From positions 32,158 through 96,157 of the forward strand of contig VGRO01000004.1 in the NCBI GenBank assembly GCA_016875335.1: a DNA stretch of 64,000 bases, given 5' to 3'. Of this stretch, positions 10,435 to 36,707 are shown piece by piece (position 1 is the first letter of the stretch; each line of letters opens with the position of its first letter). Position numbers and translations under genes: made by a program. The DNA is from Deltaproteobacteria bacterium (GTDB lineage: Bacteria > Myxococcota_A > UBA9042). Under the pieces are notes generated by a model. That model worked only from the letters and a program-made list of their open reading frames with translations, made no database searches and was not told the DNA's origin.

Positions 10435-13400
10435 CTACTTGGGACCGCAGAAGAACTGGCCCGTGGCCGAAAAAGCCCGCGCGATGATCGACCGCTCGCC
10501 CGCGGCGCTGTGATCGCCAAAGCCGATCCAGCCACCGGCCGGCCGCGGAAACACCGTGCGCAGCACCGCACTGGACGGCACCACCAGCGCGCTCGTCCAC
10601 CCCAGTTTGCCGTCGCCGCCGACCCCCAGCGCCAGGGTCGCCAGTGCGCTCGCGACACCGGCCGCCTGTGCCACCACCACAGCACCTTGGCCGGCCGCGT
10701 GGCCCCCGAGCGGCAGTTGGCTGCCGTCGATGGCCAAGGTGTGATCGACCGCGAGCTTGCCGTCGCCGCTGAACCGCACGACGCGCACGTCGTTTTGCCC
10801 GGCGATTGCTTGCCGCGCGACCACCAGCAAGTCGCCGCTCGACAGGGCCAACACCCTGACCACCTCGACGTTGGACGGCGAGGCGACGGTCGCGGACCAC
10901 ACTGGGACCCCTGCTGTCGACAGCCGGATCACGAGCACGATGTTCTTGACCTCCTCGGCGCCAGCCACCACCCAGCCGTCGGCCAGGGCGGCGATGTCGG
11001 TCAATTGGCCGGGCTGCATCGGGTGCGTGAACGACCACAGGGACTTGCCGCCGAGATCGCGTGCCTCGGCGGCCGGCCGCCGCGTGGTCGCACCCGAAGC
11101 CACGTGACCGACGGCGACAAAGGTGCCCTTGCCGTCGGTGGCCACGCCGAACCAGGCCTGGGGACCGGTCTCGTCGGGGCTGTCGACCACCAGCAGCTTG
11201 CCCGCCGCATCGGCGCGGGCCCAGACGCTGTTGCGCTGCAGGGCGTTGCCGCCCTTGGGCTGACTCCAACCGACCAACCACGCGCCGCCATCGGCGGTGG
11301 CGGCGACGCCCTGCAGCGCTTCCTGGCCGCCAGGCACGACATCGTGGTACTGCACGGCGACCGGGGCCCCTGCCGAGTCGACGCGGGCGACCAGGCTGCC
11401 GGCGGCGTCGGACGGCACAGCGCTGACATTGTGGAACCCGGCCAGCCACCAGCCGGCCTGAGCTGCGGGCGCGCCGCCCAGCACGAATTCGGCGACCTTG
11501 GCGTCGCCAAAAAGTTGCTGCGTCCACGGACACGGACCGCAGTGGCCGGCCGCGCAGCTGTGGTCGCCCGAGCAGGCGGCGGTGGTCGCAGCAGCGGCTG
11601 CGAGGCAGCCGGCCGAAGGCGAACAGGTGTCGGTCGTGCACGGGTTGCCGTCGGTGCAGTCGTGGACGACCGAGCCGATGCAGGCCCCGTCCAGGCAGCG
11701 GTCGAGGTCGAGGCAGGCGTCGCCGTCGTCGCAGTCGCCGGTCTGGCGCACCGGCCGCGGACCGGCCCACAAGTCGCACTGCTGGCGCAGGCAAGGCGGA
11801 TCGTAGCCGACTGGACTCGGGTCGAGCTGGCTTTCGCCGGTGGCCACTTCCAGTCGTGCGACGGCGCCGTGGCGCGCGCCTTCCGCAGTCTCTCGCGTGC
11901 CGGTCACGACCACCTGGTGGCCGGCGAGGCGAACTCCGCCTTGCAGACGCACATTTCCGAAATCACTGCCAAATCCAACGCGATTCCACACGACGGTGTC
12001 CTTGGCCGATATCCGCACGGTCCACGACGAGCCAAAGGTGTCAGGCCCGCCGTAGTTGGCCGTGCCAAAGCCCACCACCGCGCCGTCGTGCAGGGGCACG
12101 GCACCAAACAGGATCGCACCATTGGGCAATGGGCCGCCGCCATTGGCCTTGTCGATGGCCACCGCGCTCAGGCGCTCGCCCTGGGCGTCGAAGCGCGTGA
12201 CCAGGATCTGCGAGAGGACGCCGCTGGTGGCCCGGCCGACGGCGACCGCTCCACCGTCCGGCGTGCGGGCGATGCCCTGCAGTTCGTCGAAGGCCGCGTT
12301 GGCGCCGTTCTTGCCATTGGTCCGGTCGAAGTAGTAGAGCAGCGGCTTGCCGTCCTTGCCGAGCGCGACGCTGCCGTCTTGATGCAGCACGCAGATCATC
12401 TCGTCTTGCTGGGCTGCGCCAGCCACCGCCGGCACGGTGCGGTAGCCGGCCGCGAGGATCCGCGCCGCCGCGCCCCAGCCGACCACCGCCACGCCGCTGA
12501 ACTGGTCGTGTTTGCTGTCGCCGTGGCGCAGTTCCCACTTCAAGCCGAGGTTGGCGTCCATCCCCGCGATCCAGCCGTCCGCCAGCCCTTTGGACGCGGA
12601 AAAGGAGTAGCCGACCGCGACCCAATCGCCCGACGGCAGCGCCGCGGCGCGCAAGAGCACGTCGTCTTCGCCGGCGCCCACGGTCTTGTCAGCGAGCACC
12701 TTGCCGGCGGCGCCGACCAGCAGCAGCCACCCGTCGGATTTGCCGGCCCCGGAAGACGTGCTGTCGCCGACCGCCAGCCAGGCGGCAGCCGGTCCACGCG
12801 CGAGGCCGCGCAGGCGGTCGATGCCGGGTTTTTCGAAGACCTTGTCCCACAGCACTTGGCCCTCGGCGCTGACCGCATGCAGCCAGCCGTCGGCCGCACC
12901 GTTGCTGCCAACGGTATGCCCGGCCGCCAACACCGCGTTGCCGTCAAGCGTGGCCGCGCCGGGCAGGTCGGCGGCGGTCGACGGCGCCGGCAGGTCCACA
13001 AACAGGTGGCAATCGCAACCGTCCTGACCGGTGGCAGCGTCGATGCGCAGCAGGAGCCCATCGGGCATGTCGGGGCTCTGGGTCGACGTCGCCTTGTCGG
13101 GCCGCGTGGCGCCGGCCAGGACCACGTCGCCGTCCGGCAACGCGCAACCGCCGCGGCCCTCTTCAGCGCCGTACTGGTCGTATTCGCGCTGCCAGAGGGT
13201 CTTGCCGGTGGCGTCGACGGCTGCCGCCCAGGCGTTGGCCTTGTCGTAGTTGGCGGCGACCACGGCCTTGTCGCCCGCGAGATTGCGGGTGCGGGTGCCC
13301 ATCGCCGTCCACCCGCCGCCGGGCCGCGGCGCCAAGGCCCGGACCACCTCGCCTCCGTCGTCGGGCAGCAGCCATTGGGCCAGTTCGGACCCATCGCCGG

Positions 13401-16400
13401 CCACCCGCACCAACCAACCGTCGCCGGGAGCCAGCAGATTGGCGGCGTTGCGCACGCCCCCCAAGGTCCAGGTGCCGTCGGCATTGGCGACAAGTGCGTG
13501 GAACGCCTCGTGCTGGGTGGTGCCGAACGACTTGGACCACACCGCGTTGCCGGCGAGGTCGAGGCGGACGACCCAGGCGTCCTGCTGTTGGCTCGGCGCC
13601 TTGGGGTTGCCGCGCTGGCCGACCGCCCACGCACCCTGGCCGTCGGGTTGCAGCGCCACCGCCCACAGGTGCTCGGACACGGCGGTCTGCGACCCTGTCT
13701 GCTGGCCGATGAGCTTGCTCCACGCGAGCTTTCCGGCCAGATCGATGCGGGCAACGAGCGCGTCGGTGGCGCCGCCCTTGGCGTTGTCGATGCGGCCGAC
13801 CGCCAGCGCGCCGCCGTCGGTCAGGGTTGCCACCCCGTCGAAGCGGCCGAGGTCGGTGGCCCCGCTGCCTGCGGGAGGCGGCAACACCAGTTGGGCCTGC
13901 ACATCGCCATTGGCGTCGACGCGCACCAGCCACGGCCGCTGGGCCGGCGCCTTGCCTTGGCCGACGCCAGCGAACCACGCGCCGCCATCGGGCCGCGGCG
14001 ATACCGCCAAGAGGCGATCGGCGCCCGAGGCAGGCGAAGGGCTGTCGGCGACATAGGTGCGCTCGAAAAGCCAGGCGCCCTGCGCGTCGTGCCACACCGC
14101 CCAGCCGCGGGTGGCCTGGGTGCCATCAACCGAGGCCGCGCCCACGGCGACGAGGCCGGCGCCCGGCAAGGCGGCGACTTCTTCCTGCTCTTCGCGCTGG
14201 GCCTTGCTGGCATATTTGCAGGCAGCGGGCCAGGTGCCCGGCGCCGACGCCAGCAGCGACACTTCGGCGCAGCCGCCGCGCTCGATCCTGCGCCACGCGC
14301 CGCACCCGCCGCACTGGCCTTGATGGCACAGGCGCCCCAGGCTGCACGGAGCCTGGTTGGCCGCGTGCACGCAGGTCTTGCCGTCACCGGCGCACGCGTC
14401 GTCAGTGCACGGGTTGGCGTCGTCGCAGCCGGTCGCGGTGACGCCCTGGCACAGACCGGCGGCGCACCCATCGCTGCCCGTACACGGGTTGTGATCGTCG
14501 CACGGCCCGCTAGCTACGGGTGCGTGGGCGCAGCCGCCTGGGCCGCAGCCGTCGGTGGTGCATGCGTTGTCGTCGTCGCATGCCGCGGCTGGGTTGGCCT
14601 CGTGCAGGCAGCCATCGACCACGTCGCAGCTGTCGAACGTGCAGGGGTCCTGGTCGTCGCAGTTGACCTTCTTGCCAGCGCAACCTCCGTCCAAGCACGC
14701 GTCGCCGCCGGTGCAGGCATTGCCGTCGTTGCAGGGGCCGCCGGGCGGGATGGCAGACTGCGTGCACTGGCCGGTCTTGGGGTTGCACTGCGCCTTGGTG
14801 CACGCTGTGTCCTGGTCCAGTGGGCAGACGACCACGGTCGATGGTTTGATCTTGCACTGGAACGGCAACTGGGCTTTGTCGCAGTACAGCGTGCCATTGC
14901 ACAGGTTGCCGTCTTCGTTCTTTGCGCAGTCCAGGTCGGCGTAGCAACCGCACAGGTCGCTGCCGGGAATGCACTTGCCGCCCAGGCACGTGTCGCCAAA
15001 GGTGCACAGCGAGCCGTCTTCACACGGGCTCTGGTTGGGTTGCGGCAGGTTGGCGCACTTGCCAGCCTTCGGGTCACAGGCATAGGTGTGGCATGGCGGC
15101 GGGGCGCCGCTGCCGCAGGTGACCACGGTCGCCGGGTTGACCGCGCACTGAAAGGGCACCTTCTGCTTGTTGCAGTACAGTGCGCCATTGCATGCGTTGC
15201 CGTCTTCGAACGGGGCGCACTGGCTGTCGGCCGTGCAACTGCAGGTGTTGGCGCCGGCCACGCACTGGCCCGCATCGCAAGCGTCGGTCTCGGTACACGG
15301 GTTGCCGTCGGCATCGCAGGCTTGGCCCTGGTTGCGCTGGGTCATCGCGCACTTGCCGGTTTGCGGGCTGCACAGATTGGCGAGGCAGAAGGTGTCGGCC
15401 GCCGGACTGCACGCCACCACGGTGTTGGGGTTGACCTTGCACGATCCCGTGGGTTTGTCGCAGTACAGGCTGCCGTTGCACGGGTTGCCATCCTCCTGTT
15501 GGGCGCAGTCCGCGTCCGCCTGGCAGACGCACACGTTGGGTCCGGCCTTGCAGCCGCCGGCTTTGCAGGCGTCGCCGGTCGTGCAAGGCGAGCCGTCGGC
15601 GTCGCACGCCGTTCCGTCCGCGAGCGCGGTCATCGCGCACTGGCCGCTGGCTTTCTGACAGACGTTGAGCGTACAAGCGGAGTCGCCGCCACCCGGACAC
15701 GTGACCACCGTCGCCGGGTTGACGGCGCACACGTAGGGCAGTTTGGCCTTGTCGCAGTACAGGGTCCCGTTGCACAGGTCTCCGTCGTCCTTGCCCTTGC
15801 AGTCGTCGGTGGCGGTGCAGGCGCACAGGTTGGTCGCGGCCTTGCACGCGCCGGCCAGGCAGGCGTCGTCGGGGGTGCACGGGTTGGCGTCGTCGCAGGC
15901 GGTTCCGTCCTTGGCCAGGACCACCGCGCACTTGCCGGTCTTGGGGTTGCACTGGTTCTTGCTGCACGCGGTGTCGGCGGCGCTCGGGCAACTGACCACC
16001 GTGGCCGGATTGATCTGGCACAGGTGCGGCGCCAGGGTCTTGTTGCAGAACAGCGTGCCATTGCACAGGTCGTTGTCTTCGACGGCCTTGCAGTCGCTGT
16101 CGCTCTGGCAACCACATGCGCTCGGACCCGACGCGCACGCTCCCGCCTTGCAGGTGTCGGCGACCGTACAGACCTGGCCGTCTTCGCACGGGCCGCCGTC
16201 GTTGACAGCTGCGTAGGCGCAGGCGCCGGTCGTGGGCGCGCAGGTGTTCTTGCTGCATGGCGTGTCGGAGGCCGGCGAGCAGGCGACGACCGTGCCCGGG
16301 TTGGTCTTGCACGACCAGGGCAGCGCCGACTTGTCGCAATAGGGCACGCCGTTGCACAGGTTGCCGTCGTCGGCACAGTCGGCGTTCTGCTTGCACAGGC

Positions 16401-17159
16401 ACAGGTCTGGGCCCGGCACACACGCGCCGGACAGGCAGTGGTCGCCGTCGGTGCAAATCTTGCCGTCTTCGCACGGCCCGGCCTGGTTGGTGGGCGTGGC
16501 TTCGCAGGCGCCGCTCAGCGGGTTGCACTGCTGGGCAAGGCACGGGCTTTCGGCGGGCGGGCACACGACTTGCGATCCGGGCTTGGCGGCGCACACGGCC
16601 GGGTTCTGTTTCTTGTCGCAAAAAAGATTCCGTTGCACAGGTTTGCGTCGTCCAGGGCCGCGCAGGCCGCGTCGCTGGTGCAGCCACAGCCGTTGGTGCC
16701 CGGCTGGCACAACCCGTCGGCGCAGTGGTCGGCGACGGTGCACGAATCGCCGTCGTCGCACGGGGCGTTGTCGAGCGACGGCACGACCGCGCAAGTCTTG
16801 GTGGCCACCAGGCAGCGCGCCTCGAGGCAGGGCAGATTGGGGTCGGGGCAATCGCCGTTCTTGGCGCATGGCGGGCCTGCGCGGGCTGCGGTGACGTCGC
16901 TCGCGGGCGGCACGTCGCTGGTGGAGCCGCTCTCGGTCGGCACGGCGTCGGCGCCGGTTTCGAGTTGCGCGTCGCCGGCACGCGCCTGGTCGGGCGCCGA
17001 CGCCAGGTCGCCCAGGGTCGCGTCCAAGGCGGCGACATCGGCAGCGGGTGCGGTACTGTCGGCCGCTGAGGTCGGCGCGTCACGACATGCGGCGAGCGCG
17101 ACCGAGAGGCCCAGGGCCATCGCCGACGATCGAACCCAGCGCGCAGCAAGCATCGCCAA
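10435..17159 (-). CDS. giant (about 2,240 aa) secreted lipoprotein: N- and C-terminal arrays of Cys-rich repeats (C-x-DG-x-C-T-x-D-x-C-x-x-G-x-C / LCNGxxxC) flanking beta-propeller-like repeats; frame interrupted by a 1-nt shift near 16620-16626
   Basis: ORF 16515..17159 has a lipobox N-terminus (MAMLAARWVRSSAMALGLSVALAAC) and then Cys repeats ending ...DDANLCNGIFF. ORF 10435..16869 resumes the same repeat (...NLFCDKKQNPAVC...) in another frame. The junction lies at an A6 run (plus strand gcaaaaaag, 16618-16626). The central region has about 20 repeats of DGG-W-AVG propeller type. The plus ORF 10411..17178 is an antisense shadow. Confidence 0.7.
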
Positions 17160-17297: not shown

Positions 17298-17900
17298 ATG
17301 GCCGCGACCAGGGCGCAAGCCGACGCAGGGCAGGCACAACCGGCGCCTTCGGCCTTGGCGCCGTCGATGCTCATCGCGATGCCCGGCATGGAGGACGGCT
17401 TTTTTGCGCGTACGGTCATCTTGCTGGTCGAGCACGGCGCCGAGGGTGCGGGCGGCGTGGTGCTCAACCGGGTGGCCCCGCTCGACCTGGACACGCTGCT
17501 CAAGTCGACCGGGTTGGACAAGGCGCCGAGCGGGCCGCACCCGGTGTGGGTGGGCGGCCCGGTGTCGCCCCAGGCCGGGCTGGTGCTGTACTTGGACGAG
17601 GGCGGCAAGCGCTATGACCACGACATCGAAGTGCTGCCCGGTCTGCGGCTGTCGGCCTCGCTCAACGTGCTGCGCGACGTGGCGGCCGGCAAGGGCCCCA
17701 AGTCCTTCGGCCTCTACTTGGGCCGCGCCGGCTGGGGTCCCGGGCAACTGGAAGAGGAGTTGGCCAAGGGCGCGTGGCTGACCACCGAACCCGACCTGGC
17801 GTTGCTTTTCTGCACCGACGGCGACGCGGCGTGGCGGCGCGCGCTCAGCGGCCTTGGCACCGACGAACAGCACGTCGTGCGCGAAATCGCCAGTGCATAA
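17298..17900 (+). CDS. yqgE: YqgE/AlgH family protein (UPF0301)
   Basis: MLIAMPGMEDGFFARTVILLVEHGAEGAGGVVLNRV...WVGGPV... is typical of YqgE/AlgH. Start at ATG 17298 (MAATRAQ); the listed ATG 17235 is also possible. Confidence 0.8.
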   Translation: MAATRAQADAGQAQPAPSALAPSMLIAMPGMEDGFFARTVILLVEHGAEGAGGVVLNRVAPLDLDTLLKSTGLDKAPSGPHPVWVGGPVSPQAGLVLYLDEGGKRYDHDIEVLPGLRLSASLNVLRDVAAGKGPKSFGLYLGRAGWGPGQLEEELAKGAWLTTEPDLALLFCTDGDAAWRRALSGLGTDEQHVVREIASA

Positions 17901-18954
17901 CGCAGTTCTGGGCGCCCTTGCCGCTTTGCTCGCGGCGAGCGCGTGCGGCGAGGACGCGCCCGACCGCGCCGACGCCGCGACCGCGCCGACCGACACCGAC
18001 ACCGGCCGCGCCGCCAGCCCAGACACCGCCGGGCGCCTCGTCTTGGACGCCCCTGCCGCGGACCCGGGCAGCGCCGACGCACCGGCCGACCACGGCCCGC
18101 CCGTGTTGGACGTCGCGATCGATGGCGCAGCGCTGCCCGACGCGGCCGGTTGCACCCCGCTGTGCAAGGGCAAGGTCTGCGGTCCCAACGGCTGCGGGTC
18201 CGTGTGCGGGTTTTGCAAGTCGGGCGAGTTCTGCGCGGCCGACGGCAGCAAATGCCAGGGCTTTTGCGAAAAGAACTGCAAGGACAAGGTCTGCGGTTCC
18301 GACGGCTGCAACGGCCTGTGCGGCACCTGCGACAAGGGGTTTTCGTGCGGCGACGACTTCAAGTGCTACGCCGACGCCTGTCAGGGGTCGTGCACTGGCA
18401 AGGCGTGCGGCGACAACGGCTGCGGCAAGTCGTGTGGCGTCTGCGCCGGCAGCGACTACTGCGACGCTGGCCAGTGTATGGCCAACGCATGCAAGGGCCT
18501 CGATGTGCAAAAGGGCCAGTGCGACGGGGACCTGCTGCTGACCTGTTCGGGCACGGGCGCCGCTGCCAAGAAATTGGTCAAAGACTGCGCGGCCCCGCCC
18601 AACCTGCAGAACCTGACCTGCGGCTGGGACGCCGCCGCGAACAAGAACGGCTGCGTGCCCAAGACCTGCGACCCGAGCTGCACCACCGACGCCGGCGACA
18701 AGATGGTGTGCGGCAACAACGCCTGCGGGCAACCCTGCGGCACCTGCCCCGAGGGCTGGAAGTGCAATGTGACCTCGTGCGCGCCGGCCGAGGGCGCCTC
18801 GTGCACGCCCGGCAACTTTCCGCCCGAGGGCCAGTGCAGCGGCAGCACCTGGATCTACTGCAACACCGGCAAGCTCAAATTCGTCGATTGCAAGGCCGCT
18901 GGCATGGACAAGTGCGGCTGGAACGCGGCGGCCGGCAAGTTCGAGTGCCTATAG
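17854..18954 (+). CDS. Cys-rich secreted lipoprotein with repeated C-x-GK-x-CG-x-(N/D)GCG-x-x-CG-x-C modules
   Basis: Lipobox ...GALAALLAASAC; the GTG at 17892 overlapping the yqgE stop is a probable alternative start. At least five CGxxGCG modules (KVCGPNGCGSVCGFC; KVCGSDGCNGLCGTC; KACGDNGCGKSCGVC; MVCGNNACGQPCGTC). Confidence 0.6.
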   Translation: MAPTNSTSCAKSPVHNAVLGALAALLAASACGEDAPDRADAATAPTDTDTGRAASPDTAGRLVLDAPAADPGSADAPADHGPPVLDVAIDGAALPDAAGCTPLCKGKVCGPNGCGSVCGFCKSGEFCAADGSKCQGFCEKNCKDKVCGSDGCNGLCGTCDKGFSCGDDFKCYADACQGSCTGKACGDNGCGKSCGVCAGSDYCDAGQCMANACKGLDVQKGQCDGDLLLTCSGTGAAAKKLVKDCAAPPNLQNLTCGWDAAANKNGCVPKTCDPSCTTDAGDKMVCGNNACGQPCGTCPEGWKCNVTSCAPAEGASCTPGNFPPEGQCSGSTWIYCNTGKLKFVDCKAAGMDKCGWNAAAGKFECL

Positions 18955-19746
18955 GCCCGCTGCCATGTGCTGCTTGTAGCGCAGCCCCTCCCGGGCACCG
19001 TAGGGTCCGTAGAACACGTCGTCGAGCGTCAGGCCGTGGGCCGGCGCCGTCTGACCGGCCAGGGAGCGGTCGCCCGCCGACAACATGGCGTCCACGTCGG
19101 CAGGACGAAACCGGTGGCGACCGGCGCCGACCAGCGTCCCAGCGAGGATGCGCACCATGTTGTGCAAGAAGGCGTTGCCCTCGATGGTCAGTTCGACCAT
19201 TTCGCCGGCCAGGGCGACCTCGACCCGGTGCAGCGTCCGCAGTGTGGTGGCCGCCGTGCACTGCACCGATCGGAAGGCGGCAAAATCGTGCGCGCCGACG
19301 AACCGCTCTGCTGCCGCACGCATGGCGACCAGATCCAGTCGGCCTTTACAGTGCCAACTGTTGCGGCGCCACAGCGGCAACCGCACGGGCCCAGGCTGCA
19401 CGCGATAAATGTAGCGTTTGCCGATGGCGTCGGCGCGCACGTCGAACCCTTCGGGCAGGTCCTCGGCCGAAGTGACCTTGAGATCATCGCCCAGGTAGGC
19501 GTTCAGGCCCAGTTGCGCCCCTTTGGGCGGCATGGCCAGGCGCGTGCGCACCAGGACCGGCATGCGCCGCGCGTGGACCCCGGCGTCGGTGCGCGAGCTG
19601 GACCGCATCACCACCCTTTCGTCGAACTTGCGCTGCCAGGCGGCCTCGAGCTCACCGCCGACCGTGCGCAGGCCCTCGCCCTGGCGCTGGAAGCCACAGA
19701 ACCCGCCGCCGTCGAACTGCACCCACAGCAGCAGCGGGCGCATGCC
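18949..19746 (-). CDS. truA: tRNA pseudouridine(38-40) synthase TruA
   Basis: MRPLLLWVQFDGGGFCGFQRQ N-terminus and the catalytic RTDAGVHA motif. Start taken at the internal ATG 19746. Confidence 0.85.
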   Translation of the reverse strand, partial: GMRPLLLWVQFDGGGFCGFQRQGEGLRTVGGELEAAWQRKFDERVVMRSSSRTDAGVHARRMPVLVRTRLAMPPKGAQLGLNAYLGDDLKVTSAEDLPEGFDVRADAIGKRYIYRVQPGPVRLPLWRRNSWHCKGRLDLVAMRAAAERFVGAHDFAAFRSVQCTAATTLRTLHRVEVALAGEMVELTIEGNAFLHNMVRILAGTLVGAGRHRFRPADVDAMLSAGDRSLAGQTAPAHGLTLDDVFYGPYGAREGLRYKQHMAAGL

Positions 19747-19779
19747 GAAATCGACGGCAGCCGATTCGTCGCGCACGGC

Positions 19780-21532
19780 CTACAAGTCGAACGCGAGGCC
19801 GAACGTGAACACGCCGTCGCTGAGATCGATGCTCTTGGCGTTGCCGAAGTCGTTGAGCACGCGCCGATCGTATTCGATGTACAGGTAGCTGTGGTTGACG
19901 CCCATCTCGATGTCGAAACTGCGGGCGGCGCTCGGCTCCAACACGTCCATCAGAAAGCGCAGGCCGGCCACCGCGTGCCAGCCGCCGGTGCCGCCGAGCG
20001 CCTCCAGCTTGGTGCCGGCGGTGGTGGTGTAGGTCGCGTAGTCGCCGCTGCCGTTGAGCATCCACCAAAAGGCGTACATGGCGCCAATCTTGGCGTAGGG
20101 CACGAACGGGATGCCGGCCTTGTGGGCGAGCGGATCGAGGCGGTAGGTCAGGTCCAGGCTGAGCGGCACGATTTTCAAGGTGGTGGCGTCGGTGCTGGCC
20201 TTGCCGGTCGATTTCTCGAGGCCTTTGCCCTCCTTGGTGAACCAGCCGTAACCCAAGCCGACGGACAGCGAGCCAAAGCGGTCCCACAGACGCACGTCCG
20301 CGGCGCCGCCGATCTCCCAATCGGCGTTGCCGAAGATGTCGGCGTACGGCTTGGCCTTGCCGCCAAAAGGCGCGTCGATGCCGGGCAGGTAGCGGGTCGC
20401 GCGAAATTCGGCGCTGTTGTCGAGCGGCGAGTCGGCGTAAGCCGTCGCGGATCCCGTGCCCACTGCGGTCAGTACCAGCGCGGCCACCGCCAGGCCCCTG
20501 CGCCAGCGCCAGCCGCCGATGGCCAGAAGGGCCGCCAGCCCGGCCAGCCACCAGCCGCCGGCCGCCGGACGCGCGCCCGCGCTGCATGGGGCAAAGCCGC
20601 CCTCCTCGGTGCCGCCAGAGGTCTGGTAGTGCTGCCACGCGTCGATGACGTCGATGGGGGTGCCCTTGCCCAACTCTGAATAGCCCGACTCGTTGCCGTG
20701 ATCGTCCACGGCCGTGACCACCACGTAGTAGGGCGTACCGTTAGTCAAGTCCTTGATCTGGTAGTATTTTGTGGTCACCAGGGCGGACTTCTGCGGCTTG
20801 ATCGTCCCGGCGGCCACGCCGGTGGGATCGATCGGCAACGTCGCCCAATACACATGACTGCCCGCAACCTTGCTGCTGTCGCCGTGCTTCCAGGTAGCGG
20901 TCAGGTTGCCGCCACCGGGAGCAACGGACGACAGCGTGGGCGCGGGCGGGCCCGCCAGGTCGACGAGGATCTTGCTTTTGAACGCCACGACCTGCTGGTT
21001 GACGCCGGTCGACGCCTGGTCATTGACCAGGAAATACACGAAGGCGTCCTGTTCGCTGTTCTCGTCACAGGTCGTGTCCTTGCCGAGCAGCTGGTGCAGC
21101 TGGACCTCGACGCTGTAGGTCGCGCCGAGCTTGTAGGTCTGCTCGCTGTGCACGATGCACGAGGTGTTGGTGTCGTCCTTTTGCAGCGTGGTCTCGCCGC
21201 ACGCCTTGCCGCGCGGTGCGACCTTGACGACGCCGCTGTAGTTGCCGGGAAAGGACGGCGCCCAGGTCCAGTTGATTTTGACCACGGGGTTGGCCGCCGC
21301 CATGATCGCTTTGCAATCGGCGCGGTTGATGTAGTGCACGTCGTTGGCCTGGCCCGGCGTCGAGGCGCCCACGCCGAAATGGCTGGGCGGCGCCCAATCG
21401 GAACCCGAGGCGGTCTCAATGCTTTGGATGGCGACGACCGGCACCGCCCAGGCCGCGGTCGACCACACCGCCGCCGCACACGCCACCACAGCCGCGCCGA
21501 TGCCTTGGGTCCACGGGGTCCTACGGGTCATG
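19780..21532 (-). CDS. secreted protein: N-terminal FN3-like/Ig-like domains, an internal MYXO-CTERM-like motif, then an in-frame C-terminal ~200-aa domain with a signal-peptide-like start and an OMP-like terminus
   Basis: Signal peptide MTRRTPWTQGIGAAVVACAAAVWSTAAWA from ATG 21532. FN3-like segment (...TPYYVVVTAVDDHGNESGYSELG). Internal ...APCSAGARPAAGGWWLAGLAALLAIGGWRWRRG at 20497-20605, followed directly by LAVAALVLTAVGTGSATAYA↓DSP... and a C-terminus ...GVFTFGLAFDL. Confidence 0.6.
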
Positions 21533-21720: not shown

Positions 21721-22749
21721 CTACGCCCCGTGCACCAGGCCGCCGGCAACCGCCAACTTGGCAATCTGCACGGCGTTGGTGGCGGCGCCCTTGCGCAGGT
21801 TGTCGGCGACGACCCACAGCGCCAGGCCATGGGGGACGGACGGATCCCGGCGGATGCGGCCGACGTACACCGGGTCGGTCTCGGCACAGTCCATCGGCAT
21901 CGGATAGCGCTTGTTGGCGAGGTCGTCGACCACCACCACGCCGTGGGCCGAAGCGAGCGCTTCGCGGGCCTGCGCGACCGTGATCGGCCGGTCGAACTCG
22001 GCGACCACCGACTCGCTGTGGCCGCAGGTCACGGGCACGCGCACGGCCGTCGGGCACACCGCCAGATCCGGCAACCCCATGATCTTGCGCGTTTCGTGCA
22101 CGAGCTTGAGCTCCTCTTCGGTGTAGCCACCTTCGGCCGGGCTGCCGATGTGCGGAATCACGTTGAAGGCAATGCGGGCGTTGTGCACCGCGATGTCAAA
22201 CGGTTTGCCGTTGAGCAGGGCCGCCGTCTGTTGCGCAAGCTCCTCGATGCCCTTCTGACCGGCGCCCGACACGCTCTGGTAGGTCGATACCACCACGCGA
22301 CGCAGTCCTGCCAGATCGTGCAAGGGCTTGAGCGCCACCACCATCTGGATCGTGCTGCAGTTGGGGTTGGCGACGATGCCCTTGTGGCCGATGAGCGCGG
22401 TGGGGTTGACCTCCGGGACCACCAGCGGCACGTCGGCGTGCATGCGAAAAGCACTGCTGTTGTCGATGCACAGGGCGCCGCGGCGGGCGGCCTCGGGGAG
22501 CAGGGCCTTGCTCACCGCCGATCCGGCGGACGCCAGCACGATGTCCACGCCGTCGAACGCCTTGGGCTCCGCGACCTGAACGTCCAACGACCGCGCGCCA
22601 AAGTCGACGGTCTCGCCGACCGATCGCGGCGACGCCAACGCCAGGACTTCAGTTGCGGGAAAGCGCAGCTCGTCGAGCACGCGCAGCATCTCGCGGCCGA
22701 CCGCGCCTGTCGCACCGAGGACCGCGACTGTGTAGCGTTTTTCTTGCAT
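21721..22749 (-). CDS. asd: aspartate-semialdehyde dehydrogenase
   Basis: VAVLGATGAVGREML Rossmann N-terminus; active-site region NPNCSTIQMVVAL; ...GAGQKGIEEL. Confidence 0.9.
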   Translation of the reverse strand: MQEKRYTVAVLGATGAVGREMLRVLDELRFPATEVLALASPRSVGETVDFGARSLDVQVAEPKAFDGVDIVLASAGSAVSKALLPEAARRGALCIDNSSAFRMHADVPLVVPEVNPTALIGHKGIVANPNCSTIQMVVALKPLHDLAGLRRVVVSTYQSVSGAGQKGIEELAQQTAALLNGKPFDIAVHNARIAFNVIPHIGSPAEGGYTEEELKLVHETRKIMGLPDLAVCPTAVRVPVTCGHSESVVAEFDRPITVAQAREALASAHGVVVVDDLANKRYPMPMDCAETDPVYVGRIRRDPSVPHGLALWVVADNLRKGAATNAVQIAKLAVAGGLVHGA

Positions 22750-23149
22750 GCGTGGCAACCGGGGATCGCTGGCGCGGCGACGGCGAAGTGGGCGGCACGC
22801 GCGCCGCCGAGGCGAGGGGAGGGGGCGAATCGCCGTTCACGCACAACAAGGCGTGCACCAACGGACTGCAGGTGGGGCGGGAACGACCGCCCCGCAAGCG
22901 AGCAACTGACCCCGCGCACGGTGGGCGCGGCCACGATTGGCTACCGTCTACTGTGGCGCGCCAGTCCTGTTGCACGCCGATCCTGTTTCACGCCGATCCT
23001 GTTGTGCGCCGTTAGGGACTGGAAAACAATAGGTCGATCACTCTCGCATCAGGACAGAGCCGCGAGTCGGACCTTTGGTCCGCGAGCTGGCGACCCACCG
23101 AGCAAGCAAACGGGCCCGAGAAATGATTGAGCAAATCATTTCCTGGCCC

Positions 23150-24229
23150 TTACTGAGGCGCCCGACCCGGCGGCGGCGGCGGGATGACCACGGGCGCGGC
23201 TCCGGGCGGCGGCGGTGGAATGTTGGGCGGGCCGCCCACGCCGGGCGGCGGCGGCGGCGGAATCATCGGCGCAGGGGGCGCCCAGTCAGGCCCGTGGATG
23301 CGCACGATGATGGTCGTGATGTTGTCGTGGCCGCCGCGTGCCTTGGCCAGGTCGGTCAATCTGTAGCACGCCGACTGGGCAGTCGGCGCGTTGCGCAGCA
23401 CCAGTTCGATCTCTTCGTCGCGCACCAGATCGGTCAAGCCGTCGCTGCACAGCAAGTAGTGGTCGCCGCGCCGCACGGTGTCGACGAAAAGGTCCACGAT
23501 CACCTGATCCTGCAATCCGAGCGCGCGAACGATCACGTTTTTGTACGGGAAGTTCTCGATCTCCTCGGGTTGCAGCAGGTTCATGCGGATGTACTCGTTG
23601 AGCAACGAGTGATCCTCGGTCAACTGCCGCAGCTTGCCGCCGCGCATCCGATACAGCCGGCTATCGCCCACGTTGGCGATGTGGATGCGGTTGCCCTGGA
23701 ACACGGCGCCGACGAGCGTGGTGCCCATGTCGCGCAATTGGTCGTGCTGCTGAGCCAGCCGATAGACGCTGATGTTGGCGCTTTCGACGGCCTTGCGCAG
23801 CCGCAGCGCGTGCGGGCTCGCTTCGGCCACCGTCATCTCGGCTTTGGCCCGCCGCGCGCGCAGATAAGCCGATCGCACGCGCTGGGTCAGGTCGGGGTTG
23901 CCGTAGAACGAGCGCAGCGCCTCGATCGTGAACGCGCTCGCCACCTCGCCGGCCGAGTGGCCGCCCATGCCGTCGGCGACCACGTACAACTGGTCCGCCT
24001 CCATTAGCAGGAGCGCATCCTCGTTGCCGTCGCGCACCAAGCCGACGTCGGTCAGGCCGTGGGTCTCGAATTTGAACCGCGACGGCTTGTGCGCTGGCGG
24101 CGGCGGGATCGCCGACGGTCCGGGGGCAGCGGCGGCGACCGCTGCGGGCGTGCTGGGTGCGCGGCGGGCGGCACCGCGCTTGGCCTTGGTCGCGGCGGGC
24201 GGTGGTGCGGCAGGTTTCGAATCGGCCAT
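23150..24229 (-). CDS. PP2C-family Ser/Thr protein phosphatase with a polyproline C-terminal tail
   Basis: PP2C motifs: LLLMEADQLYVVADGMGGHSAGEVAS; ...GTTLVGAVF...; ...LLCSDGLTDLV...; GGHDNITTIIV. C-terminus PPPPPPGVGGPPNIPPPPPGAAPVVIPPPPPGRAPQ. Start at internal ATG 24229 (MADSKPAA...). Confidence 0.8.
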   Translation of the reverse strand: MADSKPAAPPPAATKAKRGAARRAPSTPAAVAAAAPGPSAIPPPPAHKPSRFKFETHGLTDVGLVRDGNEDALLLMEADQLYVVADGMGGHSAGEVASAFTIEALRSFYGNPDLTQRVRSAYLRARRAKAEMTVAEASPHALRLRKAVESANISVYRLAQQHDQLRDMGTTLVGAVFQGNRIHIANVGDSRLYRMRGGKLRQLTEDHSLLNEYIRMNLLQPEEIENFPYKNVIVRALGLQDQVIVDLFVDTVRRGDHYLLCSDGLTDLVRDEEIELVLRNAPTAQSACYRLTDLAKARGGHDNITTIIVRIHGPDWAPPAPMIPPPPPPGVGGPPNIPPPPPGAAPVVIPPPPPGRAPQ

Positions 24230-24473
24230 GCGCGGTACCCATCGGCAAGCGGTCGAAGCGGAAGGGCGCCGTCTGCACGCGCCAGCAGCGCCGCGCGCGA
24301 CCAGGCGCGGCAGTGTATCGTCGCCGACCTCGGCGCAACCGACCGATTCACGACCGGCTGGGGATGCCGGCGGCGCACCGGGCGATGCGTGGCGGCGAAA
24401 GTACCTTGGCATCGGCAAGGTGTCAAACAAGGGGCGGCGGCGGTCGCATGTGCGCGCCGCCCGGACGCGGGAC

Positions 24474-25862
24474 CTACGGCCGCAAGCGGTCCATGAGGCG
24501 GGGAAATGCTATTGTTTCACGGACATGTGGAAGACCGCACACCCAGGCCACGGTGCGCTCCAGTCCCAGGCCGAAGCCGCCGTGCGGCACAGTGCCGTAC
24601 TTGCGCAGGTCGAGGTACCAGTCGAAGGCCGCCATCGGCAGCTTGTGATGCTCGATGGCGGCGCGCAACGTGTCGTGGTCGTCTTCGCGTTGGCCGCCGC
24701 CGATGACCTCGCCGTAGCCCTCAGGCGCGAGCATGTCCACGCTCAGGCTGCGCACCGGGTCGGCCGGGTCGCGCTTCATGTAGAAGGCCTTGACCTGGGC
24801 CGGGTAGCGCCGCACGAAGATGGGCCGGTCGTACTGCTGGGTCAGGATCGTCTCGTCGTCGCCGCCGAGGTCGTCGCCAAACGGGATGTCGCTGCCAAGC
24901 TCGTGCAGTTGATCAACCGCATCAGCATAGTCCAGTCGGATAAAAGGCTTGCGAATGGCCGCCAGAGCTTCGCGCCGCAGTTTGAGTTGACGGTGTTCTT
25001 CGGCTTCGCTGCGGATGCTGTCGATGAGGTCGAGTTCCGGGCCGCGGTCGCGCAGCACGTCCTGCGCGATCGTGCACACCAGGTCCTCGGCCAGGTCGAT
25101 GACACCGTCCAGGTCCAGGAACGCCGCCTCGGGCTCGACCATCCAGAACTCGGTCAGGTGACGGCGCGTCTTGCTCTTTTCGGCCCGGAAGGTCGGCCCG
25201 AAGGTGTATACGCGGCCAAGCGCCATCGCGGTCGCCTCGCTGTACAACTGGCCGGATTGGCTGAGGTACGCTTTCTGGTCGTGGTAGTCCGTCTCGAAAA
25301 GCGTGCTGGTGCCCTCACAGGCGTTGGGCGTAAAGATCGGGGTGTCGACCAGCACGTAGTCGTGGCTGTCGAAGAAGTCGCGGATCGATTTGACGATGCG
25401 GGCGCGCACCCGCAAGATGGCCGCCTGCCGCCGCGACCTCAGCCACAAATGGCGATGATCCATGAGGAACGCTACACCGTGCTCCTTGGGCGAAATCGGG
25501 TAGTCGGCGTGCGCTTCCGCTACCACCAACAGACCATCGGCTTGCAGTTCGAAACCGCTCGGCGCCCGCTCGTCTGCGCGCACCGTGCCGGCGACCACGA
25601 TCGAGGACTCTTGTTGCAGGTGATCGGCGCGCGCAAAGGTCGCCTCGTCGAAATCCCCTTTGAATAGAACTGCCTGTATGATGCCGCTGCCGTCGCGCAG
25701 TTGCAGAAAATGCAGCTTGCCCTTGCTGCGCCGGTTGTGCAGCCACCCGCGGATCTGCACGCGTTGGCCGGCGAACGCGGCGATCTCGGCGATTCGCGCG
25801 ACGGGCAAGTCGCCGATCGTGCAGGGCAGATGGTGGGGCGTGGGCAGGCTCGCGTCGGTCAT
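24474..25862 (-). CDS. asnS: asparagine--tRNA ligase
   Basis: 462 aa, class II aaRS. AsnRS-specific motif [24 protein letters not shown]; C-terminal [28 protein letters not shown]. Confidence 0.9.
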
Positions 25863-26621: not shown

Positions 26622-28817
26622 CTATGGGCACTTGAGGTTCTTGTTGGGCTGCAGCGGGTACTTCTTCGTCCACAAATCTCCTTTGGAATCTGAGCCCTTG
26701 CAGGGCTTGAACGAGGCTGGCGACCACGTCGCGACGCCCGCGCACCACATGTCCTGCATGTCCATGGTCGGACCGGTCTTGGCGGTGTGCAGCTTGCCGT
26801 CGAGGTACACCTTGATCGTCGGCGTCGATTTGCCAAAGCCGTTGTTCGAGAAATAGTAGACCCCGACGAAGTACGGCAGGTTGGGCTGGGGCACGTGCAC
26901 GGCGATGATCTCCGGCCCCCACCCGTCCTTGTCGTCGCGGTCCAAGGCGGCGTCGTCGTCGAAATCGTCGCTTTTTCCCCACTTGCCGACCACGTTCCAC
27001 ACCGAGCAGTCCAGGCACGGCGCGTACCACGGGTCGGGCTCCCCGTTCTTGTCCAGGTCGGGTTGACCGGGTTCGTCGGGCGCGTCGGCGTGGGCAAGGT
27101 GGACATCCAGGTCCGATCCCGCCGGCTTGCTGCCGGTGGCCGGGTCGGTCTCGTCGGTCTTGTCGGGATCGGCCGGGGTATCCCAGGTCAGTTCGACGTA
27201 GAGCTTGTCGTCGCTGATGACGTTCAGCTCGTAGCTGGTCGGCCCGCAGCCGGGCGTGTCGAACGCATCCGCGATTTCAAGGGTCACCACGTATTTGCCG
27301 GCGATGTTCGGTTGCAGTTGCGGAGTCTTGACGTTGGCGGACGGCTGGAAGGTCGCGTACGACCCGGCCGGCTGCTGCAGGGTCCACTTGTACTTGGCGA
27401 TCGGCTGCCCGCTCGACCCCGGGACCGAGCAGCCGGCGTCGAACTTGAGCTTGCTTTGCGGCAGCACGTCGCCGCTGAGTGAACCGCCGGTCGCCAGCTT
27501 GACTGCCATGCACGCCTTGGGGCACTGCACCGTCGCCGCCGCCTTGCCTTGCAGCGCAAAGGCCGCGATTCCGGCGTTGCTGGTCACTGCGATCTTGCCC
27601 TTGCTGCTCGCACCCAACTGCGGTGCCGTGTAGCTCACGCCCAGGCTGCAGGTGGCGCCCTTGGGCACGACGACAGGGTGGGCGGCGCTCGGCGGCTTGC
27701 CGTTGAAACACGTGGACGCAAAGCTGACGGCAAAGCCCTGATCGACACCCTCGGCCACAGCGACGTCGGTGATGGCCAGATCTTCGGTGCCGCACGCCTG
27801 AATCTGCACTTCGCGCGGCTGCGGCACGCCGACGGGCACGACGCCGAAGTCGATGGGCCCTGGCGGCACGAATTTCACGCACGGCCCGGTGGTGTTGACG
27901 ACAAAGCTCAGGTCGACCTTTTCCTTGCCCGGCTCGTTGGTGGTGAGCCGCAGGATGGCCTGCGCCTTCTCCTCGCTGGCCAGATTCTTGAAAACGACCG
28001 GAATCTCCAGGGCGGTGCCGGCCGCGATTTCGACGGTCTTGCCTGCCGGCAGGTCGGCGCCTTTGGCAATGGTGTAGGGGCCGAGTTGGGCTTGCAAGGG
28101 CAGCGATCCGAGCATGGTGGCCGCGGAAAGGACCGCAGCCCCCTTGCCGTCGTTGGCGCAGAGCACGGTTGCCGTCGCCCCTTGGGCCAGACCGACCTTG
28201 CCGAAATCGGTGGTGGACGGCGTACAGTCCAGCTTGGGTGAGCCCAACCGCGTGGCAAACGTGGCCGTCCACGGCGTGTCGCCCTGCTTGACATCCCCTG
28301 AAAACGTGATCGCTACCTTGTACTTGCGCAGATCCGACCCCGCCGGCCGGGTGTAGCGCACGCTGAAGTTGACTTGGGTCAGCGCGCCAGCCGGCGCACA
28401 CTTGGGGTCGAATCCGGCTGGGATGACCGCCGGGAAGCCGGCCGGCGCACAGGGCTTGCCGTCGTGGGCGACACAGGCGAAGGCCGGCGCGGACACGGGC
28501 TTGCCGTCGCCGTCCGTTTCTTGCAGGGCGACGGCCTTGACGACCAGCGGCCGGCCCGACACCGCCTGCGCGTCGTTGCGGATGCGAAAGCTGAACTCGC
28601 GCGCGCCACCTGGCTGCAGGGCCACCACGTCGATGTCATAGGCGATGCCCGCAGCGTTGCCGGCCGCGTCCGAAACGCGCAGCACCGCGTTGTGGTCGAT
28701 GTTTTCGTTGGCGCATGCGCCGGACGTCGGCGCGTCGGTGCCGCAGCCGAGCACAGGGCCAGCGAGCACCGCGCCGGCAAGGCCGCAGGTTGTCCAGCTC
28801 CACATCCGACTGCGCAT
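26622..28817 (-). CDS. large secreted lipoprotein, paralog 1 of 3 (DUF1573/ASH-like Ig-fold repeats plus conserved acidic C-terminal domain)
   Basis: Lipobox start MRSRMWSWTTCGLAGAVLAGPVLGC at 28817. Repeats of PIDFGVVPVGVPQPREVQIQACGTEDLAITDV type. C-terminal domain ...ELTWDTPADPDKTD...DLDVHLAH...DLDKNGEPDPW...LDRDDKDGWGPE...VGVYYF... Confidence 0.7.
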   Translation of the reverse strand: MRSRMWSWTTCGLAGAVLAGPVLGCGTDAPTSGACANENIDHNAVLRVSDAAGNAAGIAYDIDVVALQPGGAREFSFRIRNDAQAVSGRPLVVKAVALQETDGDGKPVSAPAFACVAHDGKPCAPAGFPAVIPAGFDPKCAPAGALTQVNFSVRYTRPAGSDLRKYKVAITFSGDVKQGDTPWTATFATRLGSPKLDCTPSTTDFGKVGLAQGATATVLCANDGKGAAVLSAATMLGSLPLQAQLGPYTIAKGADLPAGKTVEIAAGTALEIPVVFKNLASEEKAQAILRLTTNEPGKEKVDLSFVVNTTGPCVKFVPPGPIDFGVVPVGVPQPREVQIQACGTEDLAITDVAVAEGVDQGFAVSFASTCFNGKPPSAAHPVVVPKGATCSLGVSYTAPQLGASSKGKIAVTSNAGIAAFALQGKAAATVQCPKACMAVKLATGGSLSGDVLPQSKLKFDAGCSVPGSSGQPIAKYKWTLQQPAGSYATFQPSANVKTPQLQPNIAGKYVVTLEIADAFDTPGCGPTSYELNVISDDKLYVELTWDTPADPDKTDETDPATGSKPAGSDLDVHLAHADAPDEPGQPDLDKNGEPDPWYAPCLDCSVWNVVGKWGKSDDFDDDAALDRDDKDGWGPEIIAVHVPQPNLPYFVGVYYFSNNGFGKSTPTIKVYLDGKLHTAKTGPTMDMQDMWCAGVATWSPASFKPCKGSDSKGDLWTKKYPLQPNKNLKCP

Positions 28818-28897
28818 CGACGCCACCACTGCCCGCGGCGCAAAACCGGGCCGCACGCCGCCAGTGTGCCACGCAGGCCGGCCGGGGTCCAAAACGC

Positions 28898-31231: not shown

Positions 31232-31277
31232 GGTCCTTCTCTGGCGGCGGACGAGCGCGGTCCGCGCGCTGCGGCGG

Positions 31278-33656: not shown

Positions 33657-33959
33657 GGTGCGGCTCCTGCGGAGTGCGGGTTGCGTTGTTTCGTTGGAAG
33701 CGAAGGAGTCAGAAGTTGGCCTGCGCTCGTCGTGGCGTTTGGCCGGTGGCCGTCGGGGTCTGTGGTCCCATCCAGGTCTGCGTTCCCATCCAGGTCTGCG
33801 TTTACTGGGCGCTTGCGGCGCGTACGGTGATGCCGCGGCGCCAACCGCAGGCACAACCTCCCGACTGTAACGGCGGGTCCGCGACCCGTCAACCACAAAA
33901 CGACGCCCAAAATCGGACCCGTGGGCGCGCTGGGGCCGACAGGCCCACGCTCGGCCCGT

Positions 33960-35531: not shown

Positions 35532-35559
35532 GGGCGGCCTTGGGGCGAAGGTTGCGGGA

Positions 35560-35910
35560 TCAGTCCTCGCCGTCCAGGTCGGCCCACAGCAGGCGCGACA
35601 GGACGAGATCGTGCAGATCCTCGGGCACGGGGTGGGCGCTCAACAGCACCGGCGCCGCGGCGACAGCCCGTGCCAGTTGGCCGGGATCGGCGATGGCCCG
35701 CAGGCGCACCACGCCGTTTTCATTCTCCAGCAGTGCGCTCGGACCCGAGGTGCACGCCGACAGACAACTGGACCGTCCGACCTCTGCCGTCGCGCCCTGG
35801 GCCTTGGCCGCTTTCTTGGCGGCGGAGGTCATGCGGGCCAGCGACGCCGTCGGCGCAGGGCGCGGACAGCCGGAGCACAGGTGGATGCGCAGGTGGACGC
35901 CGTCGCTCAT
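35560..35910 (-). CDS. small Cys-motif protein (thioredoxin-like [2Fe-2S] ferredoxin-like / DUF1636-like); start overlaps the upstream stop (ATGA)
   Basis: MSDGVHLRIHLCSGCPRP...SSCLSACTSGPSALLENENGVVRLRAI (CxxC ... CxxxC-GP). Its ATG at 35910 overlaps the TGA of the LolA-like gene. Confidence 0.45.
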   Translation of the reverse strand: MSDGVHLRIHLCSGCPRPAPTASLARMTSAAKKAAKAQGATAEVGRSSCLSACTSGPSALLENENGVVRLRAIADPGQLARAVAAAPVLLSAHPVPEDLHDLVLSRLLWADLDGED

Positions 35911-36692: not shown

Positions 36693-36707
36693 CTCGCGAC
36701 CGCGCGC

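Follow-up and report, generated by a model that had tools for sequence, protein, structure and literature searches.

The fused gene described here, on the minus strand of a 64-kb stretch of DNA from an uncultured myxobacterium (the window, by which we mean this whole stretch), arose in evolution by fusion of two neighbouring, translationally coupled genes, which are still separate in Myxococcus xanthus, and its product is likely a precursor that is cut in two. The fusion retained both the C-terminal tag of the first protein, SgmI, and the signal peptide of the second, an outer-membrane beta-barrel, and the tag is therefore now internal. Since both signals were kept, two proteins are probably cut from the one precursor. 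The gene is a new variant of the MYXO-CTERM/myxosortase sorting system, which is itself known.

Architecture of the fused gene product

The reading frame is uninterrupted by any stop codon and encodes a product of 583 aa. A first-pass annotation made from the sequence had recognized the continuous frame; its start codon, however, lies at 21531 and not at 21532 as given there. Along the protein, a putative N-terminal signal peptide is followed by two beta-sandwich domains, one of them of the fibronectin type III (FN3) fold, then by a cysteine, a hydrophobic helix and an Arg cluster, a second hydrophobic segment and the barrel. The gene, its parts and its two neighbours are as follows.

21721..22758, minus strand: asd (aspartate-semialdehyde dehydrogenase; Pfam), upstream neighbour, marks positional orthology
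19780..21531, minus strand: fused gene, 583 codons plus the stop codon at 19780-19782
21445..21531, minus strand: putative N-terminal signal peptide, aa 1-29, MTRRTPW...STAAWA followed by VP; putative cleavage site after STAAWA
20959..21444, minus strand: first beta-sandwich domain, aa 30-191 (from the alignment and AlphaFold)
20662..20937, minus strand: fibronectin type III domain, aa 199-290
20578..20601, minus strand: Cys signature motif GGFAPCSA, aa 311-318; lipidation and myxosortase cleavage are predicted at Cys316
20509..20556, minus strand: first hydrophobic helix GWWLAGLAALLAIGGW, aa 326-341; predicted membrane-spanning part of the internal MYXO-CTERM-like signal
20497..20508, minus strand: basic cluster RWRR, aa 342-345; predicted cytoplasmic loop
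20434..20493, minus strand: second hydrophobic segment LAVAALVLTAVGTGSATAYA, aa 347-366; internal and signal-peptide-like
19783..20433, minus strand: outer-membrane beta-barrel domain, aa 367-583; 8 strands
18949..19776, minus strand: truA (tRNA pseudouridine synthase; Pfam), downstream neighbour, starts 4 nt past the stop of the fused gene

NCBI annotates the 583-aa protein as a 'hypothetical protein'. The elements of its putative N-terminal signal peptide (MTRR, the hydrophobic stretch, and AWA before VP) were read by eye; A29 is nearly invariant in an alignment of 20 sequences, and AlphaFold predicts a helix at residues 7-29. The first beta-sandwich domain carries four invariant cysteines (73, 111, 125 and 155) and aligns from residue 57 onwards to the profile NF045522, which represents the MXAN_2561/SgmI family. 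Over residues 57-343 (profile positions 27-300 of 304) the match reaches 92.8 bits (E 2.7e-26). This score falls short of the equivalog cutoff of 150 bits, and the N half is a homologue of SgmI over its full length at a sub-equivalog level.

The C-terminal domain, which the first-pass annotation had called beta-barrel-like, belongs to the MXAN_2562 family: residues 373-582 match positions 3-207 of 208 of the profile NF040596 with 198.4 bits (cutoff 100), and the AlphaFold model has the fold of an 8-stranded outer-membrane barrel. The domain ends in G-L-A-F-D-L, which resembles a BAM beta-signal. Its fold is similar to those of the OmpA N-domain, OmpW, NspA, OprF-N and the Legionella Dot/Icm porin III, at an identity of only 11-20%, and to our knowledge none of these is produced from the C-terminal half of a precursor, following a signal peptide that is internal.

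Two sorting signals at the junction

The cysteine, hydrophobic helix and Arg cluster of the junction occupy residues 311-345. The stretch from APCSAG to RWRRG comprises residues 314-346 (20592..20494), with Cys316 at 20586..20584, and the range 20497..20605 to which the signal had been assigned earlier covers residues 310-345 and is right to within one codon. AlphaFold predicts a helix at 326-342. In the alignment of 20 sequences, G311, G312, C316, A318, R342, A366, S368 and P369 are invariant, and conservation reaches 90% or more at F313, A314, W327 and A364.

The tag has the layout of a MYXO-CTERM signal, namely the invariant C316, the hydrophobic stretch 326-341 and the invariant R342, with a weak basic cluster (RWRR). 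The generic MYXO-CTERM profile TIGR03901 (cutoff 20 bits) scores the window segment below its cutoff, at 11.8 bits, because this cluster is degenerate; weak clusters are also seen among the closest relatives, where they read RWRR, RCR, RWRN and RRW. For comparison, segments of fused homologues score 18.4 and 22.4 bits, and canonical split homologues 20.3 and 16.7 bits. The assignment of the tag therefore rests on its homology to the tail of the SgmI family: in NF045522, the profile of the MYXO-CTERM-anchored MXAN_2561 family, the segment matches positions 267-302 of 304, at the C-terminal end. Its location is another matter. A MYXO-CTERM domain lies by definition at the extreme C-terminus (Haft preprint 10.1101/2023.06.07.544157), whereas the present tag ends at residue 345 of 583 and is followed by 237 residues.

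From the tag the frame runs on into the second hydrophobic segment, LAVAALVLTAVGTGSATAYA, which is the positional homologue of the N-terminal signal peptide on stand-alone barrel genes. A signal peptidase I site is predicted behind A364-Y-A366, at the end of LAVAALVLTAVGTGSATAYA (20434), with D367 next. Across 124 distinct fused junction sequences the same order is found, Cys, hydrophobic, basic, hydrophobic and small-x-small. The Cys is kept in 124/124, including two parser failures that were read by eye, the second hydrophobic segment is likewise present in all 124, and 123 have at least two basic residues within a 6-residue window. Both of the elements that the first-pass annotation had pointed out thus proved real, the MYXO-CTERM-like signal by its alignment to the NF045522 tail, its invariant columns and the layout of the 124 junctions, and the in-frame signal-peptide-like segment by the invariant A366 and its presence in every junction. 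Judged from these sequences, selection appears to act on both sorting signals, whereas the linker drifts in sequence and length.

In some relatives a different tag, CFI-box-CTERM (NF041770, 85-97 bits), replaces MYXO-CTERM. It is terminal in one split locus (L033) and internal in five fused proteins (P0140, P0142, P0083, P0039 and P0046). CFI-box-CTERM is about 70 aa long, whereas the tag of the window protein is of the short, MYXO-CTERM-like form.

Fused and split loci

All 20 homologues from the protein database have the continuous ORF at full length (578-632 aa, 43-100% identity), as do 33 independent genome assemblies. In 46 other Myxococcota genomes, among them Myxococcus, Corallococcus, Archangium, Lujinxingia and Polyangiales MAGs, each half is encoded by a gene of its own; the two lie next to each other, their order is that of the fused gene, and in 42 of the 46 they overlap by ATGA. 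The comparison of orthologues that had been proposed with the first-pass annotation hence gave a continuous gene within the fused clade and two genes elsewhere. Uniform continuity, named beforehand as a sign of one stable protein with a conserved linker, does hold within the fused clade; it refutes only the reading as an artefact, because the linker conserves a pair of sorting signals and not the linker sequence.

In the split loci the barrel gene has its Shine-Dalgarno sequence within the Arg/Lys codons of the tag, for example CGG AGG AAG (R-R-K). The barrel gene always lies directly downstream of the SgmI-family part or is fused to it. About half of the best 150 relatives of the barrel domain are fused; the 124 junctions were collected overall. 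On a tree of the barrel domain, the 34 fused sequences from genome loci form one clade. A neighbour-joining tree of 228 barrel domains would require at least 32 fusion/fission changes, a count that is not to be trusted because the tree, built on about 215 aa at 35-40% identity, is weak and some 'stand-alone' metagenome proteins may be fragments.

The neighbourhood also connects the two forms. The gene asd is adjacent and upstream in 31/33 fused and 45/47 split loci, and truA is downstream in all 33 fused loci and adjacent in 5 split ones. In M. xanthus the genes sgmI (MXAN_2561) and MXAN_2562 belong to the same two families, stand in the same order and are both downstream of asd. The sgmI product in Myxococcus is an FN3 protein with a Cys/transmembrane helix/Arg tag, and MXAN_2562 encodes a barrel protein of about 210 aa that has a signal peptide of its own. 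Myxococcus and its relatives thus have two genes with an ATGA overlap, whereas the window has a single ORF with an internal tag and an internal signal peptide. By sequence and position, the fused gene is the positional orthologue of the sgmI and MXAN_2562 gene pair. The first-pass suggestion that a MYXO-CTERM-bearing FN3 protein had been fused to its downstream outer-membrane partner is strongly supported by the assignment of the halves to MXAN_2561 and MXAN_2562, by the 46 split genomes and by the shared slot next to asd.

Comparison with known systems

The prototype of the MYXO-CTERM/MrtX system, TraA, combines a tripartite tag with an N-terminal signal peptide; the window protein has a tag of like make-up and a putative signal peptide at its N-terminus. 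Its gene overlaps that of its envelope partner, traB, by 4 bases (PMC3325183). TraB is an OmpA-domain protein and is unrelated to the window barrel.

An internal 'C-terminal' sorting signal has a precedent in the midcut-by-XrtH family (NF033207), which we take to be a curated family with an exosortase-type sorting signal in the middle of the protein. It differs from the present case in the type of tag (PEP-CTERM) and in the enzyme (the exosortase XrtH). The window protein is not a member, scoring 13.9 bits against a cutoff of 45 (E 0.04, aa 313-381), and the likeness is one of analogy only. Our literature search found no paper on the family NF033207, and no mention of an internal MYXO-CTERM, of 'midcut' or of a fusion of sgmI with MXAN_2562.

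Proposed processing of the precursor

Processing into two products is a plausible mechanism and the one that we prefer, given that both signals are conserved in some 124 divergent junctions. Guided by the N-terminal signal peptide, Sec would export the FN3 part over the inner membrane until the helix of the tag (aa 326-341) stops the transfer, leaving RWRR in the cytoplasm. Residues 347-366 would then restart export, with RWRR reused as their n-region, so that this basic cluster may have two roles, closing the tag as its Arg cluster and opening the next signal peptide as its n-region. With a stop of transfer followed by restarted export, the junction would form a helical hairpin in the inner membrane. 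Signal peptidase I would cleave past A364-Y-A366 and free the barrel, which BAM would insert into the outer membrane, and the tag would be processed at Cys316 by a myxosortase (MrtX), releasing a lipidated surface domain. A single precursor would in this way yield the surface protein and the barrel that partners it in a strict 1:1 ratio.

TraA with a FLAG tag beyond its MYXO-CTERM is still cleaved by MrtX (PMC11980579), and the tag therefore need not be strictly terminal. After the cut by signal peptidase, the tag of the window protein would retain about 20 extra hydrophobic residues, an extension that is larger than the FLAG of the literature and embedded in the membrane. Within the 64-kb window we found no myxosortase (CPBP), no type II secretion genes and no other or terminal MYXO-CTERM proteins; the only export-related genes there are yajC-secD-secF and a LolA-like gene.

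The two products may also interact, as suggested by the coupling of the genes, their fusion and a shared phenotype: MXAN_2562 is apparently co-transcribed with sgmI, and the transposon-insertion fitness profiles of the two genes are alike (bioRxiv 10.64898/2026.08.28.747804). More broadly, we lean towards the view that tags of the myxosortase class (MYXO-CTERM and, in relatives, CFI-box-CTERM) function naturally at internal positions of a polypeptide. They would do so through a Sec hairpin, a basic cluster with a dual role and three cuts (by signal peptidase at the N-terminus, by myxosortase at the Cys and by signal peptidase at the internal AxA), and would yield a surface lipoprotein and its dedicated barrel partner at 1:1.

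Alternative explanations

The internal tag could be a relic that no myxosortase processes, in which case signal peptidase alone would cut and free the barrel, and the FN3 part would stay anchored in the inner membrane by the hairpin, facing the periplasm. The sub-threshold TIGR03901 score of the window segment, the degenerate basic cluster of its subclade, the lack of a detectable myxosortase in the 64-kb window and the position of canonical tags at the very C-terminus (Haft preprint 10.1101/2023.06.07.544157) all agree with such a relic. We nevertheless regard it as unlikely. A plain stop-transfer anchor would not need the Cys or the GG..C.A signature, and yet both are invariant in the 20 homologues and kept in all 124 junctions; moreover, other fused members exceed the MYXO-CTERM cutoff (22.4 bits), and MrtX tolerates a C-terminal extension (PMC11980579). 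Quite improbable is a scheme in which the two proteins are still made separately, with the barrel translated from an internal start at the junction and the fusion arising as read-through of a bicistronic message. The ancestral pair was indeed translationally coupled, and in the window an in-frame GTG (V349) has AGGGG 7 nt ahead of it, but this pair of a Shine-Dalgarno-like sequence and a start is missing in the closest relatives (L001 and L010), as it is in the majority of the 33 fused loci. A search of 34 fused loci for a conserved Shine-Dalgarno sequence and start codon past the basic cluster gave sporadic matches only. The triplet AGG, which makes the Shine-Dalgarno sequence in split loci, is rare in the fused ones (3 of 135 basic-cluster codons), where the cluster is written with CGC or CGG. 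A product initiated at V349 would in addition have no positively charged n-region, and the full-length fusion would be made even with internal initiation.

The order of a passenger followed by a barrel recalls type Va autotransporters, and the coexistence of fused and split forms has a counterpart in autotransporters and two-partner secretion, so that the gene might encode an intact protein whose C-terminal barrel exports or displays the FN3 passenger. Type V translocator barrels have 12 to 16 strands and adjoin the passenger directly, with no membrane helices in between. The present barrel has 8, two hydrophobic helices with a basic loop lie between the domains, and the split homologues each have their own complete sorting signals; we have rejected this possibility as very improbable. 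As for the continuous frame itself, the first-pass annotation had considered an assembly error or a stop codon lost by mutation, to which a sequencing frameshift in a two-gene locus may be added. The source is a metagenome-assembled genome, and a single frameshift at the ATGA overlap separates a split locus from a fused one. The chance of such an artefact is nevertheless negligible, and it was rejected, since the ORF is continuous in 20/20 homologues (down to 43% identity), in 33 assemblies and across 124 junctions, and the fused clade is monophyletic among genome loci.

Implications

Generic annotation rules for MYXO-CTERM, which expect a terminal tag, would miss the window protein. The split loci display a compact gene design in which the Arg/Lys codons of the tag double as the ribosome-binding site for the gene that follows, and therefore one frameshift can turn two coupled genes into one working precursor. 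Such dual-use codons may explain the apparent interconversion of fused and split forms. The fused proteins are also a natural experiment on whether a myxosortase-type tag has to be terminal, which bears on substrate recognition by MrtX and on the design of surface display.

The fusion is Rosetta-stone evidence that SgmI, which acts in S-motility and adhesion, works with the MXAN_2562 barrel, in parallel to TraA and TraB. By analogy, it suggests that MYXO-CTERM surface proteins in general may have dedicated outer-membrane partners. If the proposed processing of the fused precursor is true, it would mean that the anchoring or function of SgmI-type surface proteins depends on a cognate barrel, and that a bacterial envelope 'polyprotein' exists in more than a hundred divergent lineages.

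Architecture of the fused gene

The ORF at 19780..21531 on the minus strand encodes 583 aa with no internal stops, confirming the first-pass annotation that the frame runs on past an internal MYXO-CTERM-like tag; the start codon lies at 21531, not at 21532 as then given. The range assigned to the tag, 20497..20605, corresponds to residues 310-345 and was right to within a codon.

Parts of the fused protein
aa 1-29 (-), signal-peptide-like N-terminus, ending AWA/VP
about aa 30-191 (-), Cys-containing beta-sandwich
aa 204-285 (-), FN3 domain (Pfam fn3; AlphaFold strands 199-290)
aa 311-318 (-), GGFAPCSA motif
aa 326-341 (-), hydrophobic helix
aa 342-345, window 20497-20508 (-), basic stretch RWRR
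aa 347-366 (-), second hydrophobic stretch, ending AYA
last 217 aa (-), C-terminal domain, last residues GLAFDL

Each half falls within a curated family, and the sorting system too is already known. The NCBIfam model NF040596 ('MXAN_2562 family outer membrane beta-barrel protein') covers aa 373-582 at 198.4 bits (cutoff 100), and this assignment bears out the earlier 'OMP-like domain'. FN3 domains were matched in the N-terminal part, and NF045522 ('MXAN_2561 family MYXO-CTERM-anchored protein', NCBIfam) aligns with aa 57-343 (92.8 bits, E 2.7e-26), below its 150-bit equivalog cutoff. MXAN_2561 encodes the FN3 protein SgmI, which has been implicated in motility that depends on type IV pili; sgmI and MXAN_2562 are apparently co-transcribed, and insertions in them give similar fitness profiles (bioRxiv 10.64898/2026.08.28.747804). 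The NCBI product name of the fused protein is just 'hypothetical protein'.

Origin of the continuous frame

A protein search retrieved 20 homologues (43-100% identity), all of 578-632 aa with query coverage of 94-100%. In their alignment, G311, G312, C316, A318, R342, A366, S368 and P369 are invariant and F313, A314, W327 and A364 nearly so; the residues between them vary, and loop length differs by up to about 15 residues. We then scanned one genome per species, which yielded 80 loci, and searched their stop-to-stop ORFs with HMMs that we built for each half (N and C). A single ORF contains both halves in 33 loci, all in MAGs of uncultured Myxococcota, many of lake origin. The assembly error or mutated stop raised earlier is ruled out by these 33 loci and the 20 of 20 full-length homologues.

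In 46 other loci, from Corallococcus, Myxococcus, Pyxidicoccus, Archangium, Vitiosangium, Lujinxingia and Polyangiales MAGs, the halves are separate adjacent genes in unchanged order, as the proposal of a two-gene fusion had anticipated. Gene 1 stops after a canonical tag (e.g. ...GGCAAAGGGLAGGAVLAALGIWLSSRRKVS*), and gene 2 begins with a canonical signal peptide (e.g. MSSTAVGLGVAALLLAVPAVAQE...). The genomic slot is identical in the two states: asd lies immediately upstream in 31/33 fused and 45/47 split loci, and truA immediately downstream in 33/33 fused and 5 split loci. Judged by sequence comparison, the window gene is a fusion of two genes that are separate in other Myxococcota. The split genes share an ATGA stop/start overlap in 42 of 46 loci, and therefore a single-base deletion just upstream would merge the frames. 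They resemble traA/traB, likewise a MYXO-CTERM protein and an envelope partner whose genes overlap by four bases (PMC3325183).

Spread of the fused form

HMMER, run exhaustively with only the barrel domain as query, matched 1241 cluster representatives with E values up to 1e-3, 695 of them up to 1e-10. Among 169 pooled proteins (the best barrel-domain matches plus the 20 first-search homologues), 99 are joined to an SgmI-like N part, 66 stand alone and 4 are long proteins without such a part. Pool and genome loci together gave 124 distinct fused junctions. The second hydrophobic segment is present in every one, two or more basic residues fall within a 6-residue window in 123, and an upstream Cys was found by parser in 122 and by inspection in the remaining 2. 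In some relatives CFI-box-CTERM (NF041770, 85-97 bits) substitutes for MYXO-CTERM, with additional hydrophobic segments after it; it is terminal in one split locus (L033, 4352-6685) and internal in the fused proteins P0039, P0046, P0083, P0140 and P0142.

A neighbour-joining tree of barrel domains from the genome loci groups the 34 fused sequences, the window's among them, in a single clade. In a larger tree, also built by neighbour joining, genes seem to have changed repeatedly from one state to the other, fused or split, beyond the two big pure clades; the number of changes it gives is unreliable.

Neighbouring genes

A PP2C-family phosphatase with a proline-rich C-terminal tail (PPPPPPGVGGPPNIPPPPPG...; 23150-24508, -) adjoins asd in 28/33 fused-clade loci. 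Convergent with truA, a 366-aa secreted-looking, very Cys-rich protein with repeated CG..GCG..CG.C motifs (17854-18954, +) has no Pfam match; it occupies the same position in 32/33 fused-clade loci (45-86% identity) and in 0 split loci. The giant ORF at 10435-17079 (-; about 2214 aa) has as its sole Pfam match PF00526, the Cys-rich 'Dictyostelium (slime mold) repeat' (31.9 bits, 3 stretches). Three large ORFs in a row at 26622-33959 (-; about 806, 826 and 893 aa) carry PKD or Ig-like (HYDIN/VesB-like) domains and Cys-containing C-terminal ends, with a MYXO-CTERM tail in none of the three; a spermine-synthase-like and a LolA-like gene follow (33960-36707). A 157-aa ORF at 39402-39875 (-) matches the full profile of PF05854, 'Non-histone chromosomal protein MC1' (E 2.4e-28, 98.7 bits). 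MC1 is a chromatin protein known from archaea (Methanosarcinales and Halobacteria), and so is unexpected in a Myxococcota genome.

Five loci (L011, L013, L020, L025, L032) lie on MAG contigs titled 'Klebsiella pneumoniae' or 'uncultured Enterobacteriaceae'. These labels look wrong, since the contigs carry the Myxococcota-type HU-(aaRS)-PP2C-asd-fusion-truA locus with 70-87% protein identity to the window.

Proposed processing of the junction

The split relatives identify each junction element, namely a tag and a Sec signal peptide. The tag's Arg cluster would be cytoplasmic, as would the likewise basic n-region of the following signal peptide; joined head to tail the two are topologically compatible, and the junction would form a helical hairpin sharing one basic loop. 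The Cys signature is conserved, and so is a small-x-small site ahead of (A/D/E)SP; the sequence between them drifts, as would be expected had both processing steps been retained. The barrel starts a few residues past the AxA site, and a barrel tethered to an inner-membrane helix could not reach the outer membrane, which argues for cleavage. We infer every processing step of the fused precursor. MrtX (MXAN_2755) mediates Cys-dependent cleavage of MYXO-CTERM, which persists with a FLAG tag after the MYXO-CTERM in M. xanthus and E. coli (PMC11980579). Going by its name, the curated 'midcut-by-XrtH' family (NCBIfam), to which aa 313-381 give a weak sub-threshold match, may be a precedent for a sorting signal in the middle of a protein. 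Our literature search found no paper on this family, on a MYXO-CTERM or CFI-box tag in an internal position, or on an SgmI-barrel fusion.

With TIGR03901, whose cutoff is 20 bits, the tag of the window itself reaches 11.8 bits. The window's closest subclade (with L001, L002 and L010) has a degenerate basic cluster, variously RWRR, RWRN, RRW or RCR, and the remaining fused clade has RRRR or RRRK; recognition may be relaxed or altered in this subclade. In the 64-kb window there is no gene for a myxosortase, for type II secretion or for a protein with a terminal MYXO-CTERM.

The fused loci have lost an AGG-rich Shine-Dalgarno (AGG makes up 3/135 basic-cluster codons) and have no conserved internal start, so that the barrel would be made within the precursor. 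In 42 of 46 split loci the tag's Arg/Lys codons, e.g. CGG AGG AAG, supply the barrel gene's GGAGG Shine-Dalgarno (examples at L047 6230-6250 and L068 6360-6380); there, one short sequence directs protein sorting as well as translation.
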